This document shows positions 53,422 through 64,000 of a DNA stretch of 64,000 nt, piece by piece. Made by a program: the position numbers and the translations under genes. Location of the stretch: positions 96,001 to 160,000 of the forward strand of contig CAWBMV010000036.1 of the NCBI GenBank assembly GCA_963789955.1. Direction: 5' to 3'. The notes under the pieces were generated by a model. It was not told the DNA's origin, searched no databases, and saw only the letters and a program-made list of their open reading frames with translations. The stretch is from an uncultured Candidatus Rokubacteria bacterium. Its GTDB lineage: Bacteria; Methylomirabilota; Methylomirabilia; Rokubacteriales; CSP1-6. The stretch's first letter is position 1. Each line of letters begins with the position of its first letter.

Positions 53422-55050
53422 CTAGCCCAGTCGCTCGCGCGCGGCCTCGCGCAGCCGCGATTTCTGGACTTTGCCACTCGACGTCATCGGGAGCTCGTCG
53501 ACGACGAATGCGTGGCGCGGGATCTTGAAGCTCGCGATCCGTCCCCGACAGAACGCGAGCAGATCGTCCGGGACGACGGTGGCCCCCGGAGCAGGCTGCA
53601 CGAAGACGACCCCCACTTCGCCGAGCCGAGCGTCGGGGTAGCTGACGACGGCCGCCTGCCGGACACCCGGGTAGGTGCCGAGATAGCTCTCGACCTCGGT
53701 CGGATCGACGTTCTCGCCGCCGACCTTGATCATGTCCTTGTAGCGGCCGACGAAGCGGAGATGGCCGTCGGCGCGCAGGATGCCGGCGTCGCCGGTGTGG
53801 AACCAGCCGTCGGCATCGATGGCGCGCGCGGTCGCTTCGGGATCCCGGTAGTAGCCCTGCATGAGGTATCGCGTCCGGACCACGATCTCACCCGGCGTGC
53901 CGCGCGGCTGCTCGTGGCCCGTGTCGGGATCGATCACGCGCACCTCGAAGCCCTCGCACGGAAGTCCGGACGCTTCGCACGCCTGCTCGTCCGTCGAATC
54001 GAGGAGCGACATCGAGATCGTCGCGCCGACTTCCGTCATGCCGTAGGCGGTCAGGTGTCGCAGCGGCGCCAGGGCCTTGCGCGCGCGATAGAGGATCGGC
54101 GTCGCGCTCGCCGCGCCGGCCGCCATGATACCGGTGCGCAACGTCGACAGGTTGCGCGGCCGCGCGTCCTGGGCGTCGATGAGGAGCTTGAGTTGCGTGT
54201 CGAAGCCGTCGATATGAGTCGCGCCTTCGCGCTCGACGAGATCGAGCGCCTCGTCGGCGTCGAACGTCTCCGTGAGAATCTGCCGGTAGCCGACCAGCAG
54301 CGAGCCGAGCGGCCCGTCGACGTAGCCGAAGATGTGAAAGAGCGGAAGGTAGTTGACGAAGACGTCCCGCTCGGAGGACTGCAGGCGCCGGTAGCGGTCG
54401 GCCATGTGAGCGAGCAGTGTATGGTCGCGCATCACGCCTTTGGGGAACCCCGTCGTTCCCGACGTGTACATGATGAACGCCGTGTCGCTGGGACGCACTG
54501 CCGCCGCCCGCGCGGCCAGACGGGCCGGGTCGACCGCGGCGGCCGACGCCAGGAGCTCGGGCCAGCCCCAGGCTCCCGGATACTGCCGATCGCTCAGGAC
54601 GACCACCCGCTCCAGATCGGGCAGTCGTGCGCTCCGCACGCGCCGGCTCTCACCGCCGCCCTCGAACGACGCGAGCTCGCGAACCATTCCGAGGTAATCG
54701 ACGGGCCCGGAGACATCGTGGGTCATGAGGGCCGCCGCGTTCGATCGCTCGAGGACCTGCGCCAGATCGACGGTCCGGAATCGCGTATTGATCGGCACGT
54801 GGACGGCGCCGATCTTGGCCAGGGCGAACATCGCGAAGATCCACTCGGGGCAGTTGAGGAGCCAGAGCGCGACCTTCTCGCCCGGCCCGACGCCGATGTG
54901 GATCAGCCCGCGCGCGAGGCGGTCGACCTCGGCGGCGATCTGACGGAACGAGAAGCGACGATCGCGGAAGACGAGGGCCTCGCGGTCGCCCCACCGCGCG
55001 GCCGCCGTGTCCGTCAGGTCGCCGAAGCGGGTGACCGAGCGTGCGTCCAT
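53422..55050 (-). CDS. AMP-binding acyl-CoA synthetase
   Basis: YTSGTTGFPKG, YGMTE, FHTGD, GGENV, SGKVQK. Confidence 0.92.
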   Translation of the reverse strand: MDARSVTRFGDLTDTAAARWGDREALVFRDRRFSFRQIAAEVDRLARGLIHIGVGPGEKVALWLLNCPEWIFAMFALAKIGAVHVPINTRFRTVDLAQVLERSNAAALMTHDVSGPVDYLGMVRELASFEGGGESRRVRSARLPDLERVVVLSDRQYPGAWGWPELLASAAAVDPARLAARAAAVRPSDTAFIMYTSGTTGFPKGVMRDHTLLAHMADRYRRLQSSERDVFVNYLPLFHIFGYVDGPLGSLLVGYRQILTETFDADEALDLVEREGATHIDGFDTQLKLLIDAQDARPRNLSTLRTGIMAAGAASATPILYRARKALAPLRHLTAYGMTEVGATISMSLLDSTDEQACEASGLPCEGFEVRVIDPDTGHEQPRGTPGEIVVRTRYLMQGYYRDPEATARAIDADGWFHTGDAGILRADGHLRFVGRYKDMIKVGGENVDPTEVESYLGTYPGVRQAAVVSYPDARLGEVGVVFVQPAPGATVVPDDLLAFCRGRIASFKIPRHAFVVDELPMTSSGKVQKSRLREAARERLG

Positions 55051-55061
55051 CGTGCTGCCGG

Positions 55062-55697
55062 CTACGGGATGCCGAGGAGCTTGTGCGTCTGCAAGCTCAG
55101 GCGCCATCGCGGATGCTCCAGACAGTATTGGACGGCGAGCTGCGTGTTGCGCAGACGATCGGGGCCGTCCATCGGCTGCAGGAAGAAGTGGGTGAAGGGC
55201 AGACCCTGCAGCGATTCCGGGTCGATGCCGGCTTGTGGGTAGATCAGCTTCAGCTCGTTCCCCTGTCTGAGCACCAGCTCCGCCCCGGCCTTCGGACTCA
55301 CGCAGACCCAGTCGATCCCGTCGAGCCCGGGTTGCGTCCCATTCGTCTCGATGGCGATCGTGAAGCCTTCCGCGTGCAGCGATTTGATGAGCGGCGCGTC
55401 GAGCTGCAGCAGCGGCTCGCCGCTGGTACAGACGACGAAGCGCGACGCGGCTTCGCTCGACGGCCAGGCCGCCGCGACGGCCTTCGCGAGTGCCTCGGGC
55501 GAGGCGAAACGACCGCCTCCCGGGCCGTCGACCCCCACGAAATCGGTATCGCAGAAGCGGCAGGCGGCGGTGGCCCGATCCGGCTCGTGCCCGGACCAGA
55601 TGTTGCAGGCTGCGAATCGACAGAACACGGCCGGACGACCGGTGTTGGCGCCCTCGCCCTGGAGCGTGTAGAAGATCTCCTTCACCGCGTAGCTCAT
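55062..55697 (-). CDS. queE: 7-carboxy-7-deazaguanine synthase, CX14CX2C radical SAM type
   Basis: [45 protein letters not shown]. Confidence 0.95.
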
Positions 55698-56401
55698 GGG
55701 GATGCCGGCGTCGTCGGCCGATACGCGATCGGATCGCGGGTCCCGCTCTCGCGAAAGCCCTTGAGGCGCAGCAGGCAGGCGTCGCAGGCGCCGCATGCGG
55801 CGCCGTCGCTCGCGGGGTCGTAGCAGGACGTCGTCAGCGAGTAGTCGACACCGAGGGCGAGACCGGCGCGGACGATGTCGGCCTTCGTCATGCTGATGAG
55901 CGGCGTGTGAATGGTCAAGCGCTTGCCCTCGACGCCGGCCTTCGTCGCGAGGTTCGCCATGTGCTCGTACGCCGCGATGTACTCGGCTCGACAGTCCGGA
56001 TAGCCGCTGGCGTCGAGCACGTTCACGCCGATGAACAGATCGCGCGCGTCGAGCACTTCGGCCCAGGCGAGCGCGAACGACAGAAAGATGGTGTTGCGCG
56101 CGGGCACGTAGGTGACGGGAATCCCGTGGCCGATCTCCGCGAGCGAGCGCGCCTTCGGGACGTCGATCTCGCTCGTGAGCGCCGAGCCGCCGAAGCGCCG
56201 CAGGTCGACCGGCACCACGATGTGCCGCGTGACGCCGAGGTGTTTCGCGACGTCCGCGGCCTTCTCGATCTCGATGCGGTGACGCTGGCCGTAGTCGAAG
56301 GTCAGCGCATAGAGCGTGAAGCCCTGCGAGCGCGCGATGGCGGCGGAGGTGCTGGAATCGAGGCCTCCGCTCAGAAGGACCACCGCCCGTCGCTCCACCA
56401 T
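55694..56401 (-). CDS. queC: 7-cyano-7-deazaguanine synthase
   Basis: LSGGLDS, YGQRH, TYVPARN, GYPDCR, SCY..CGACDAC. Confidence 0.96.
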
Positions 56402-56413
56402 GGGCTCCTCGAT

Positions 56414-57553
56414 TCAGCTCCGCGTCGGCAGCTCGACGACCCCGCTGCCGAGCACCGACAGCTCGCCGTCCTGATTGCGCGCTTCCTGCTCGATCTCGAC
56501 CAGGTGCCGGCCGTTCTCGATGCGCTTCGTCTTGACCGTGCCGTCGATCCGCAGGGTGTCGCCTTCGGGGTTGTGGCGGCGGATCTTGCAGTACGCGCCG
56601 CGGAGGAACCCGTCGTCGCCCATCCAGTTGGTCAGATGATGTGTGAGCCACGAGCACCGCTCGGGGCCGTAATCGTAAGCCCCCGGCGCGCCGACCATGG
56701 TCGCGAACTCCTGCTCCCAGTGGACGCGCTCCGGGCAGTCGGGAATGCCGAAGCGGTTCTTGATGCCCAGACCCGAATGACGATGCACCTGCTTCCAGGC
56801 GAGCTTGTTCGCCCGGATGTAGAGGCCGCCCCAGCCCTGCGCATAGGCGATGAAGCCCGTCACGGTCATCGGCCCCTTCGCCATCGTCGGCAGCCGCTCG
56901 CCCTCGCGCACGTCGTCCCAGTACCGCGGGGTGCCGCCGCGGATCTGCTCGTTCGCGTAGAGCCGGTAGACGTCGGCGAGCTCCTCGTCGGTGTAGCGCT
57001 TGGGAGGCTTCGCCTTCACCGCGGTGTACTTGGTCCCGGCTTCGCGCGCCTGGTCACGATCGGTGCGAAAGCACCAGCTGTCGGCGGCGGCGACGAGGTC
57101 CCCGCGCTGGTTGTAGAAGTCGACGTGATAGACCTGCTGGATCGAGCGGCCCGCGAACGTCGTCTGGTGCTCGATCAGCTCCTTGAGCCATGCCTCGGTC
57201 GTGATCGCGTCGTTGCGCCGCACCGGGTGGTGCCACGTCCAGTCCGCCCCGGCCCACATCGCGTGCACGCCCGGCAGCCCGCCGACATAGCCCGAGATGA
57301 TCCGGCTCGTGGCAAAGAGAAAGCTCGGCGGCGCGACCACGCCACCCCAGCGTGTGCCGGCGGCGTACTCGGGATCGCACCAGAGCGGGTTGTCGTCGCC
57401 GATGCCGTGCGCGTAGTGGCGCAGGTTGTCGCGCGTGGCCTCGTGGCACCACGGCTCGAGCGTGTCCGTGATCTTGACGCCGATCCGGCGGCGCAGGTCA
57501 TCGAGGCCCTGCTCGGTGATCTTCGGAAAAAGCGTCGTCGTCTCACGGGGCAT
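56414..57553 (-). CDS. Double hot-dog (MaoC-like) acyl dehydratase
   Basis: YAHGIGDDNPLW, APPSF, HAMWAG, YWDDV, TNWMGDDG. Confidence 0.82.
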   Translation of the reverse strand: MPRETTTLFPKITEQGLDDLRRRIGVKITDTLEPWCHEATRDNLRHYAHGIGDDNPLWCDPEYAAGTRWGGVVAPPSFLFATSRIISGYVGGLPGVHAMWAGADWTWHHPVRRNDAITTEAWLKELIEHQTTFAGRSIQQVYHVDFYNQRGDLVAAADSWCFRTDRDQAREAGTKYTAVKAKPPKRYTDEELADVYRLYANEQIRGGTPRYWDDVREGERLPTMAKGPMTVTGFIAYAQGWGGLYIRANKLAWKQVHRHSGLGIKNRFGIPDCPERVHWEQEFATMVGAPGAYDYGPERCSWLTHHLTNWMGDDGFLRGAYCKIRRHNPEGDTLRIDGTVKTKRIENGRHLVEIEQEARNQDGELSVLGSGVVELPTRS

Positions 57554-59110
57554 GCGTGGGCTCCACGGCGCTCGCCTCGGATTCGCGAAGCGCCTTGCGG
57601 TTGACCTTGCCGGCGGGCGTCTTGGGCAGCGCCGCCACGAACGCGACGCGCCGCGGGTATTCGTGCTGGCTGAGCCGCGTGCGCGTGAAATCCTGCAGCT
57701 CGCGGGCGAACGCGTCGTCGCCGCCGCGCGCGCTCACGATGAACGCCTTGACCACCTGGCCGCGCAGCGCGTCGGCGACGCCGATCACCGCCGCCTCGCG
57801 CACGTCCGGATGCCGGAGCAGCACGTCCTCGATCTCGATCGCGCTCATGGTCCAGCCGGCCGAGATGATGACATCGTCGGCGCGCCCGGCGTGATAGAAG
57901 TAGCCATCGCCGTCCACGTGGCCTCGATCCTTCGTCGGAAACCAGGCATCGCGTCGCCACACCTTGATCTCGCCGATCTGGTCCGGCGGGCAGGGACGTC
58001 CGTCGGCGTCCTGCACCTCGACGCGGACGCCGGGGACGGGCTTTCCGAGTGCGCCGGGCTTGACGGCGTAATCGGCGGCGCCCGGATAGTCGGCCAGGAT
58101 CACACCGACCTCGGTCGTCCCGTACATGCTGCACACGCGCGTGCCGAACGTCGCCTCGACGAACGCGCGTGCTGGCGCTGTCCATCGGCTCGCCGGTGAA
58201 CGACAGCTTGCGGATGCCGTAGCGATACGCGCCGGCCTGTCCGGAGCTCTTCAGCATGCGATAGTGCGTCGCCGCGGCCGCCACGTTGGTCACGTCGTAC
58301 TCCTGCAGCGCGCGGAGCATCCGGACCGGATCGAACTTGCCGGCCATCGTCCCGGTGGTGACGCCGAGCGCCAGCGGCGCGAGCGTGCCGTGCCAGAGGC
58401 CGTGCCCCCACGCGGGCGAGGACGGGCAGAAGAAGCGATCGCCCGGCCGGATGCCCGTGCCGTAGAGTGCTGCGACCATGAGCGCGACGATCGCGCGCTG
58501 GGGATGGCGCACCGCAGCCGGCAGCTCCCGCGTCGTGCCCGACGTGTACTGAAAGACCGCGAGGTCGTCGGCGGCGCTCCGCACCTCGTAGTGGGCCGGG
58601 AGCGCCGCCAGCGTGGACAGCGAACGCGTCGTCGGCCACCACGACCTCGAGCCCGGCGATGGCGCGCGCGGTGTCGGCCTTCTCGGCGTTGGTCAGCAGG
58701 AGCCGCGGCGTGCAGTCTTCGACCCGCAGCCGGACACCGTCGGGCCCGAACAGGGTGAACAGCGGCACCGCGATGGCGCCGCGCTTGATGGCGCCGAACA
58801 GGGCGGCGTAGAAGGCCAGCGACGGCTCGAGCATGATCGCCACGCGGTCGCCGGGGGCGACGCCGCGCGCCGCGAGCCAGTGGGCGAAGCGCGCGGACCA
58901 CTCGGACAGATCACGAAACCCGAGCGTCTCGTCGCGCCCGTCGGCATGGGCGACGCGGACCGCGACGCGACCGGAGCCGGCGTGCCGGTCCAGGCACTCG
59001 ACGGCGATGTTCAGCGACTCGCGGCCGCCGTCGAAGAGCGACCACAGCGCCGCGGATTGGAAGTGCCGGTGGGCGTCGGCGTAGGCCGTGTAGTCCGTCA
59101 GTCGCATCAT
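57543..59110 (-). CDS. Acyl-CoA synthetase (AMP-binding), frameshifted
   Basis: LNIAVECLDRH, YTSGTT, YGTTE, GRADDVI, LPKTPAGK. Confidence 0.88.
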
Positions 59111-62415: not shown

Positions 62416-63300
62416 TCAGCGCGAGAAAAAGTCTCGGAGATTCGCGTAGGTCTCGTCGGGCGCCTGCTCGGCTGGATAGTGGCCGCAGGGCAGCGCGATG
62501 CAGCCGGCGAGATTGGTGACGTAGGTCGACCAGCCCTTCTCGTATCCGTAGAACTTGGCCGTGTGGCTCTGGCCGCCGACGATCACCAGCACGGGGCAGG
62601 CGATCTTGTTCCCCGCGTCGAGGTCTTTCTTGTCCATCTCGAAGTCGATCGTGGCGCCGGCGCGGTAGTCCTCGCAGACGCCGTGGATGTTCTCGGGCGT
62701 GCAGCAGCGCACGTATTCTCGGATGGCGTCTTCGGTGAAGCCGCCCTTGCCCAGCCCCTGGGAGCCGAGCTTGAGGCGGATGTAGTACTCCTCCTTGCCG
62801 GCCAGGAGACGCTCGGGGAAATCGTACGGCTGCGCCATGAACGACCAGTGATAACTGTTGAGCGCCCATTCGCGCGTGACGTGCGTCCACACGTGATGGG
62901 TCGGCAGGATGTCGATCGCGCAGAGCTTCTGCACCGCCGCCGGATGGTCGAGCGTCATGCGATAGGCGGTGCGCGCGCCCCGATCGTGGCCGGCCACCAT
63001 GAATCGCTCGAAGCGGAGCTCGCGCATGACGTCGACCTGGTCCTGCGCCATGCGTCTGAACGAGTAGTTGCTGTGGTCGGGTAACCCGCGGGGCTTGCCG
63101 CTGTCACCGTAGCCGCGCAGGTCGGTGGCGACCACGGTGAAGTCCTTGGCCAGGCGCGGAGCGACGAAGCGCCAGTGGTAGTACGTGAGCGGATTGCCGT
63201 GCAGGAGCAGCACCGGCGGGCCCGATCCGCCCACCACCCCACGGATCGTCACTTGTGGATCGCTGGTCTGGATGTCGAAGCGGCGGAAGCCCTCGTACAT
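62416..63300 (-). CDS. Alpha/beta hydrolase, haloacetate/fluoroacetate dehalogenase-like
   Basis: LLHG, DLRGYGDS, GHDRGAR (Asp nucleophile plus Arg), YHWSF, CEDYRA, CGHY. Confidence 0.85.
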   Translation of the reverse strand: MYEGFRRFDIQTSDPQVTIRGVVGGSGPPVLLLHGNPLTYYHWRFVAPRLAKDFTVVATDLRGYGDSGKPRGLPDHSNYSFRRMAQDQVDVMRELRFERFMVAGHDRGARTAYRMTLDHPAAVQKLCAIDILPTHHVWTHVTREWALNSYHWSFMAQPYDFPERLLAGKEEYYIRLKLGSQGLGKGGFTEDAIREYVRCCTPENIHGVCEDYRAGATIDFEMDKKDLDAGNKIACPVLVIVGGQSHTAKFYGYEKGWSTYVTNLAGCIALPCGHYPAEQAPDETYANLRDFFSR

Positions 63301-63378
63301 CGCGCCCTCCTGGCTTGTGCGAGAGTTTATCCTGCTCCCGGGTAGGGCAACAGACGGAGCACCGACAGGAGGGCACGA

Positions 63379-64000
63379 GTGGTGGGCTTTGAGATCAGGA
63401 CGGCCGAGGAGTTCGCCGCGCGCGACCTGCAGAGCCTCTGGCCGGCTCGACGCGCCGCGCGCGGGAGGCCGGAGTTCCGGCGTGTCCTCCAGCTCTTCGT
63501 CGAGCGAGGCGGACCGGTTCTCATCGACGAGATGTCCCAGGCTCTCGTTGCTCTGGATGACGAGGACCTGATCCGTATCCAGGACGGGAAAATCGACGTC
63601 GCGTATCCCTTTACGGCGTCGCCCACTTCGTTTGCGGTACGGCTGCCCGATGGTCAGGAGAGGTTCGCCTGCTGCGCCGTGGACGCGCTCGGCATCGCGC
63701 CGATGATCGGGCAACCGGTCGAGATCCGCTCGCGCTGCCATCATTGCGGGGCGCCGCTCGATCTGACGTCGACCCCGGAGGGGCCGCGACCTGAAGGGTC
63801 GGACGTGATGCTCTGGATCGGCCAGCGGGCCGACGATCGCTGCAAGATCGCCGATTCGCTCTGAACGACGATCAACTTCTTCCGGTCGGAAGAGCACCTG
63901 AGGGCGTGGCGAGCCGAGAATCCAGCCGCAGAAGGCGCCGGCACCACGCTCATCGAAGGCTTCAAGCTCGGCGCGCGAATCTTCGGCGGCCTGCTCACAG
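63379..64000 (+). CDS. MerB-like organomercurial lyase, probable selenoprotein (TGA 63862-63864 read as Sec), 3' partial
   Basis: [20 protein letters not shown], then [34 protein letters not shown] open to window end. Confidence 0.8.
63877..63894 (+). promoter_or_regulatory. Candidate bacterial SECIS element
   Basis: TTCTTCC-GGTC-GGAAGAG hairpin, loop starting 20 nt after the TGA. Confidence 0.7.

Follow-up and report, generated by a model that had tools for sequence, protein, structure and literature searches.

The window analysed here is a stretch of 64,000 nucleotides of one contig from an uncultured Rokubacteria genome that is 87% complete and 5% contaminated. A gene encoding a MerB-like protein runs over its right-hand end, and the following features were assigned to this gene and its surroundings:

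62416..63300, minus strand: divergent alpha/beta hydrolase gene, found where relatives have merR and probably outside the system
63322..63333, plus strand: conserved upstream 12-mer ending in the -10-like TATCCT, a putative right-hand remnant of the relatives' MerR-type operator/promoter, significant in orthologues
63367..63372, plus strand: predicted ribosome-binding site AGGAGG of the MerB-like gene
63379..64000, plus strand: predicted MerB-fold selenoprotein gene, 211 aa (M1 to R211), of which 14 bases extend beyond the window end (stop at 64012-64014)
63670..63684, plus strand: C98-C99-A-V-D102 segment, with C99 and D102 corresponding to MerB Cys96 and Asp99
63736..63747, plus strand: C120-H-H-C123 segment, with C120 corresponding to MerB Cys117, a probable remnant of the second treble-clef knuckle
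63862..63864, plus strand: UGA, predicted Sec162, equivalent to the catalytic Cys159 of MerB
63877..63894, plus strand: predicted SECIS hairpin with a 7-bp stem and a GGUC loop that begins 20 nt past the UGA, encoding F167-F168-R169-S170-E171-E172

The reading frame starts at GTG 63379 and meets TGA 63862-63864 as codon 162. As an earlier reading of the sequence alone (the sequence-only reading) had claimed, the frame stays open beyond this TGA for 45 codons up to the window end, and in the contig it continues for 49 codons overall until the real stop at 64012-64014, which shares bases with the ATG start of an enoyl-CoA hydratase-like gene. Taken alone, this open tail was rejected as evidence for recoding, since in this 68% GC genome at least 50 open codons follow the TGA in 6373 of 13525 long TGA-ending frames, which means that about 47% have such a tail by chance. 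The suspicion that the gene had been annotated as truncated was borne out by the protein collection, which holds a 161-aa product from the window's contig; among the best 30 representative proteins, 22 stop one residue ahead of the Sec column (counted by eye). In its N-terminal winged-helix domain (window 63510-63545) the window protein is 12 residues shorter than its nearest relatives, a shortening that is also found in a second strain copy and in an independent metagenome contig. The second copy is located on contig C2, which repeats approximately 23 kb of the window's contig (C36:134500-163600) at 87-97% identity; this was considered to fit a co-binned strain rather than a paralogue, and C2 probably represents such a strain.

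The UGA is almost certainly decoded as selenocysteine, a prediction built on homology and conservation and not on the open tail or the hairpin energy by themselves. A search for the genes selA, selB, selC (tRNA-Sec) and selD found all four in the host genome above curated cut-offs. The selD gene (contig C6:164350-165330) has its own in-frame UGA and hairpin, and is frameshifted soon after in the assembly. When the read-through product was aligned to solved MerB proteins, the UGA (U162) fell on the Cys159 column; of the 31 homologous loci fetched, 29 have TGA in this column and two have TGC. Matches were obtained in 47 of 61 related genomes; of the 42 with an E value of at most 7e-28, 40 contain one TGA and two contain none. 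The selA gene is above its cut-off in all 35 genomes carrying a close UGA form, while one Cys-form genome (98% complete) has no selA and the other one does. Within the Methylomirabilota, 92 of 151 genomes have PF03243, and an in-frame TGA was present in 104 of 127 matches according to a hand count that takes in more distant families too. The tallies over the 61 related genomes, the 151 genomes of the phylum and the hydratase loci discussed below include the unpublished genomes G025, G105 and G140, on which no individual claim depends.

Selection on the region beyond the UGA was estimated from eight sequences of the window's group, in which the pooled pairwise dN/dS (the pairs not being independent) amounts to 0.23 ahead of the UGA and to 0.12 beyond the hairpin, indicating that the tail is under purifying selection. 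Four of 24 public sequencing runs were compared with the gene. An independent DNA contig from a soil metagenome spans the UGA and, among the differences listed, has neither a Cys nor a Trp codon there, because all of its A-to-C, A-to-G and T-to-C changes fall outside this codon. In one sediment RNA run the contigs cover the entire gene, which is compatible with its transcription without proving it. The genetic code of the host can be regarded as standard, and a reassigned TGA was therefore rejected, because TGA ends 1877 of the 3061 long genes, more than any other stop, and no tRNA among 58 apart from tRNA-Sec has a UCA anticodon. It is highly improbable that translation really ends at the UGA, or that this codon stems from a sequencing error or has been reassigned, leaving a truncated product or a pseudogene: although indel errors do occur near the gene in the assembly and open tails are frequent by chance, the second strain copy and 40 of 42 close matches have the UGA too, no Cys or Trp codon replaces it in the soil contig, the tail is conserved, and both stop usage and anticodons speak for the standard code. 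The three observations that had been named beforehand as counter-evidence (reads with a Cys codon, a genome lacking selABC, and homologues with neither Cys nor TGA at this column) did not arise.

A rough genome-wide scan for selenocysteine, which missed the window's gene and SelD and contains false matches, shows other typical selenoproteins, including two FdhA genes. Further motif-labelled candidates in the genome are presumably Prx/TlpA-like redoxins, GrdB-like, two UGSC, AhpD/CMD-like, DsrE-like, MoeB and ArsC-like proteins. Deng et al. reportedly predicted 63 selenoproteins in one Methylomirabilota genome in 2026.

The hairpin following the UGA (stem 63877-63883, loop GGTC 63884-63887, stem 63888-63894) has the geometry described by the sequence-only reading, with its loop at +20; in the two FdhA genes of the same genome the hairpin loops likewise begin at +20. 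Its folding stability is modest (z -1.9 for 27 nt and z 0.2 for 49 nt) and was considered weak evidence for a SECIS on its own, so conservation was used in its place. Four hairpin codons, Phe-Phe-Arg-Ser, are identical in 29 of 29 UGA loci, including the six-fold Arg codon CGG and the Ser codon TCG, whereas control Arg codons situated four and seven codons further on use six and three different codons in the UGA loci. In both TGC (Cys) forms the hairpin is disrupted. The predicted SECIS hairpin is thus conserved beyond coding needs, being frozen in UGA forms and lost in Cys forms. A wider scan yielded 80 loci, of which 76 were readable; all 76 have TGA and 75 have the hairpin core, a count that is biased towards Sec forms, as one of the two seed patterns includes the hairpin peptide. 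The proposed lower stem (63857-62 with 63901-06) is present in the centroid fold of the window sequence but did not hold up across relatives, because the codon of its 3' arm varies among them (six Arg codons). A fourth match to the hairpin pattern in the genome (contig C22) falls within a sigma-factor-like gene but not in its frame, and was discarded as a chance match.

The protein matches Pfam MerB (PF03243) with 105 bits against a cut-off of 27, over model positions 1-126 and spanning the UGA. In the alignment to MerB proteins of the PDB, C99, D102, C120 and U162 correspond to Cys96, Asp99, Cys117 and Cys159, so that the earlier placement of Cys96 and Asp99 in the CAVD motif and of the TGA at Cys159 was correct. 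C99 and D102 are found in 27 of 27 aligned members and C98 in 25 of 27. An AlphaFold2 model computed from 27 sequences has a mean pLDDT of 86.8, with values below 50 in the Sec loop (model residues 149-161), and all 11 Foldseek matches of this model with E up to 0.001 are MerB (best 3f0o, E 4e-11, TM 0.65). The modelled 211-aa read-through product accordingly has the MerB fold, with a predicted Cys99-Asp102-Sec162 site.

The CHHC motif had been described as an extra element of this protein, a view that must be dropped because its first Cys, C120, is the conserved MerB Cys117; the second, C123, is present in 18 of 27 aligned members. According to the available text of one study (PMC4999995), MerB arose from duplicated treble-clef zinc fingers. 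In our own mapping, C120-x-x-C123 and a later F-C-S-x-x-H would represent the ligands of the second finger. The ligand set C-x-x-C...C-x-x-x-H is complete in 22 of 42 Cys outgroup proteins, whereas in 81 of 82 clade members the third ligand is Arg, which makes an intact zinc site unlikely. We infer that CHHC is a remnant of the zinc knuckle of the fold. The Arg is encoded by the hairpin CGG, and the SECIS thus seems to have overwritten a zinc ligand of the second finger.

The relatives of the gene are frequently found in mer-like operons. Mer-type neighbours are present within 4 kb in 26 of the 80 loci (merR-like 22, merT-like 15, HMA/MerP-like 12, merF-like 8, zinc-ribbon 23 and glutaredoxin 20), while 54 loci, many of them on short contigs, have none within this distance. 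The usual order is a divergent merR followed by Sec-merB, glutaredoxin, zinc ribbon, merF, merT and merP; MerE- and MerC-like genes are also found among the MerT-, MerF- and MerP-like neighbours. The glutaredoxins of these operons have the motif UxxC in 22 of 22 cases, and Sec was found in 12 of 13 HMA motifs, the MerP-like neighbour having UxxU in 10 of 13. For all seven regulators tested the mercury MerR model TIGR02051 gave the best score (118-137, cut-off 150.85), with scores only a few bits lower on the CueR and CadR/PbrR models. One relative's MerF passes its cut-off. The merA gene is above its cut-off in two of the 61 related genomes, and the window's genome is not one of these; in two loci its place is taken by a flavin disulfide reductase that has Sec and lacks the C-terminal Cys pair, and two loci carry an additional near-canonical Cys MerB. 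No metal efflux ATPase was seen in the relatives' loci inspected.

Individual loci illustrate this variety. L049 (genome G039) and L051 (G051) have in-frame UGA codons in the lyase, MerP-like (UxxU), glutaredoxin (UxxC), zinc-ribbon and flavin disulfide reductase (CxxxxU) genes, and L049 also carries a near-canonical Cys merB. In the subclade of L058-L061 Sec-merB is flanked on one side by an ECF sigma/anti-sigma pair and on the other by genes for a rhodanese and a dehydrogenase E1, and other subclades adjoin unrelated genes. A second, distant MerB-like family is represented in the host genome on contig C14 (approximately 83700-84450, minus strand; L011, L163), where it is frameshifted in the assembly; its first site reads C-x-x-E, a UGA stands in the Cys159 column, the GGUC hairpin is the same, and the next gene is one that we take to be an amidase. 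In its relatives L154 and L155, UGA occupies both catalytic columns.

The history of the window's copy was investigated with a FastTree tree of 140 sequences and an IQ-TREE tree (LG+G4) of 51 selected rows, for which the columns of Sec and of the hairpin had been masked. In both trees the window's group is nested within the mer-context members, the branches concerned being starred in the IQ-TREE tree, and a tree uniting the mer rows without this group was rejected (AU p 0.00017), a hypothesis that was prompted by the first tree and for which one locus, having HMA as its sole such neighbour, was given no label. Upstream of the gene, a MerR-type dyad operator between -35 and -10 elements is present in 20 of 21 MerR loci. 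Judged by a matrix of this operator, the basal member of the window's group retains a decayed MerR operator, with a score of 24.8 against a background maximum of -6.2 in 3000 draws. The right half is significant in six of six relatives of the window's group; in the window alone the remnant is not significant (10% of the background reaches it). The Cys forms nest among the Sec forms (AU p 0.037), which suggests, weakly, that they are reversions from Sec.

In the window's genus the gene is located between the divergent hydrolase and the hydratase, among flavin monooxygenases. Further upstream (window 55000-59110) are queC, a queE-like gene and genes for a MaoC-type dehydratase and an acyl-CoA synthetase. 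The synthetase gene is whole in relatives; here it is divided among frames, probably due to indel errors. Outside the genus, merB was adjacent in none of 18 loci of hydratase orthologues (70-82% identity), so a functional coupling to the hydratase is unsupported. Tree nesting, operator remnants and these 18 hydratase loci together indicate that the gene left a MerR-controlled operon, retained the -10 element and landed before the hydratase. The window's copy can therefore be described as an orphan of a MerR-controlled mer-like operon, placed beside catabolic genes in one genus and still under purifying selection. The statement that no mer genes are in view stands for the host genome as well, in which merA, merT and Hg-type merR were not found (87% complete); what it seemed to imply does not, since the gene has its origin in a mer-like operon under MerR control and the absence is secondary. 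For the same reason the oxygenase-rich surroundings probably say little about the substrate, and the adjoining catabolic genes are probably incidental. The MerR-family matches of the host genome were rejected as mercury regulators by sequence and position, and its three best MerA-like matches are below the cut-off, the two inspected having no C-terminal Cys pair. The glutaredoxin, zinc-ribbon and MerP-like partners of the relatives' operons were not found in the host genome either.

The most likely function is an organomercurial lyase-type chemistry with a selenolate, which we consider somewhat better than an even proposition, and the protein is best read as a predicted organomercurial lyase or trap. 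In MerB, according to the available text of a review, two cysteines bind R-Hg, Asp99 protonates the carbon, and MerA then takes Hg(II). In the window's gene, SelB and tRNA-Sec at the GGUC hairpin almost certainly carry translation through the UGA to give the 211-aa protein. By analogy with MerB, R-Hg+ or a similar soft organometal cation would be bound by its Sec162 selenolate and Cys99, and Asp102 would protonate the carbon to release R-H. Since a selenol is ionised at neutral pH, Cys99 or water, and not residue 162, would supply the proton that Asp102 relays. The metal remaining on Se would be held tightly. Where relatives have the operon, MerA is likely replaced as acceptor by the glutaredoxin (UxxC), the zinc-ribbon protein with Cys or Sec and the MerP-like protein (UxxU); in the window's genome, since neither MerA nor these partners were found, turnover would take place via general thiol or selenol redoxins, or would be slow. 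Several observations weigh against the organomercury reading: the scores are far below those of canonical MerB models, merA is above its cut-off in only two of 61 related genomes, 54 of 80 loci have no mer-type neighbour within 4 kb, the Sec loop has a pLDDT below 50, and 12 winged-helix residues are missing.

The metal handled may be other than mercury, because the regulators miss the MerR cut-off and score only a few bits lower on CueR and CadR/PbrR. The same selenoprotein and chemistry could act on another soft metal or organometal(loid), such as organolead, organotin, organoarsenic or Cu/Ag/Cd, with an operon that is merely mer-like. We regard this as unlikely. In its favour are regulators that fall between the MerR, CueR and CadR/PbrR models, a merA that is nearly always missing, a gene far commoner than merA in these soil genomes, and the same reservation voiced for SaoL in the available text of Haft and Gwadz (bioRxiv 10.1101/2022.07.06.499078). 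It is countered by neighbours that are MerT-, MerF-, MerE-, MerC- and MerP-like, by the near-canonical Cys MerB in two loci, and by inspected loci in which no metal efflux ATPase was seen.

A stoichiometric trap or chaperone, in which the selenolate captures Hg(II) or R-Hg+, possibly ending as HgSe, and shields other selenoenzymes with little or no cycle of C-Hg cleavage, appears a little less plausible still. No MerA was found to unload a product, many other selenoprotein candidates in the genome would need protection, the copper chaperone NosL has the same fold, and selenoamino acids turn methylmercury chemically into HgSe, as stated in the available text of a review. However, the catalytic acid Asp99 is invariant (27 of 27), and the Sec glutaredoxin that follows the gene in operon-bearing relatives suggests recycling.

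Recruitment into the neighbouring catabolism (flavin monooxygenases, acyl-CoA synthetase, hydratase, hydrolases), for instance as a C-S or C-metalloid lyase, is improbable. The overlap of the stop with the hydratase start, an arrangement kept in the window's group, would agree with it, as would the presence of both an orphan-type and an operon copy in some genomes (G006, G015), but the hydratase orthologues outside the genus have no adjacent merB, the window's group has no new conserved residues, and other subclades adjoin unrelated genes.

A wider picture can be proposed tentatively, as a possibility to which we give clearly less than even weight: a selenium-based, MerA-independent organomercury system widespread in soil Rokubacteria, of which the window gene would be an orphaned, still selected lyase. 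MerR would then switch on Sec-MerB, the glutaredoxin with Sec, the zinc-ribbon protein with Cys or Sec and uptake genes of a Sec MerP/MerT type; demethylation would fall to the lyase, and disposal of Hg(II), possibly as HgSe, to a selenol relay. Surveys of mer genes would in that case overlook an abundant group of soil demethylators, because gene callers cut such genes at the UGA. In Methylomirabilota, merB is likely much undercounted, because surveys that require Cys159 discard the truncated products. In the available text of one study (PMC8261052), about half of the MerB-encoding genomes are without MerA and their disposal of Hg(II) is an open question, for which the Sec glutaredoxin and UxxU partners would offer a concrete candidate route. 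The clade also offers a case in which Cys has been exchanged for Sec by nature at a catalytic site that is well studied, and the naturally occurring Cys forms can serve as controls.

Compared with known families, the gene is placed by its sequence in a large Rokubacteria-centred clade, separate from SaoL and canonical MerB. None of the NCBIfam models covers this clade. NF041115 (UxxU metal-binding selenoprotein), the best score for the C-terminal part of the relatives' MerP-like neighbour, and NF045683 (MerT/CopZ selenoprotein) model the metal-binding partner, not the lyase. In the consulted part of a 2026 review (PMC13188914), a table of 119 selenoprotein families has SaoL as its sole MerB-type entry, as does the available text of a 2022 selenoprotein review. 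The main texts of deep-Sep and BSepDB and one BSepDB supplement, which is possibly incomplete, contain no MerB term. No description of the clade was found in the literature searched; Haft and Tolstoy 2025, Deng et al. 2026 and the bioRxiv supplements were outside this search and may list it.

Canonical MerB (EC 4.99.1.2) shares with the window protein PF03243 over the full length, the winged-helix and catalytic domains and the retained Cys96, Asp99 and Cys117. The signature Cys96, Asp99, Cys117 and Cys159 given in the available text of PMC8261052 differs at its last position, where the window protein has UGA/Sec162; it also has no Cys160 and has an additional Cys before Cys96. It reaches 63 of the 193 bits required by NF009710 and 52 of the 200 required by NF033555, with 22-25% identity to MerB (PDB 3F0O, 3F2G, 1S6L; MerB2 5C17). 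As in classical mer operons, relatives of the window gene are divergent from a merR-like gene and accompanied by merT/merF/merP-like genes, but classical operons have no glutaredoxin or zinc-ribbon partners, and merA is mostly missing in the relatives.

SaoL is the only protein for which Sec at this position of the MerB fold was known hitherto. It resembles the window protein in its MerB fold, in Cys-x-x-Asp with Sec at the Cys159 column, in an identical residue numbering (C99/D102/U162), in database entries truncated approximately 50 residues early, and in a function that is only inferred in both. The window protein scores 61 bits on the SaoL model (NF040728) against a cut-off of 140, matching model positions 48-126 only. 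In the available text of Haft and Gwadz (bioRxiv 10.1101/2022.07.06.499078), SaoL has a CU dipeptide, a nine-gene SAO locus and anaerobic hosts, whereas the window clade has LU in 28 of 29 UGA loci and FU in one, and no part of the SAO locus nearby; the window neighbours are a hydrolase, a hydratase and monooxygenases, and SaoC, sought genome-wide in a search without a positive control, gave no match. The hosts of SaoL are strict anaerobes, while those of the window clade are soil and groundwater Rokubacteria and a few members of other phyla. The available text of the same preprint reports that no selenoprotein was found in mercury resistance, in contrast with the window clade, where Sec-MerB is linked with mer-like operons under MerR control in bacteria that are common in soil.
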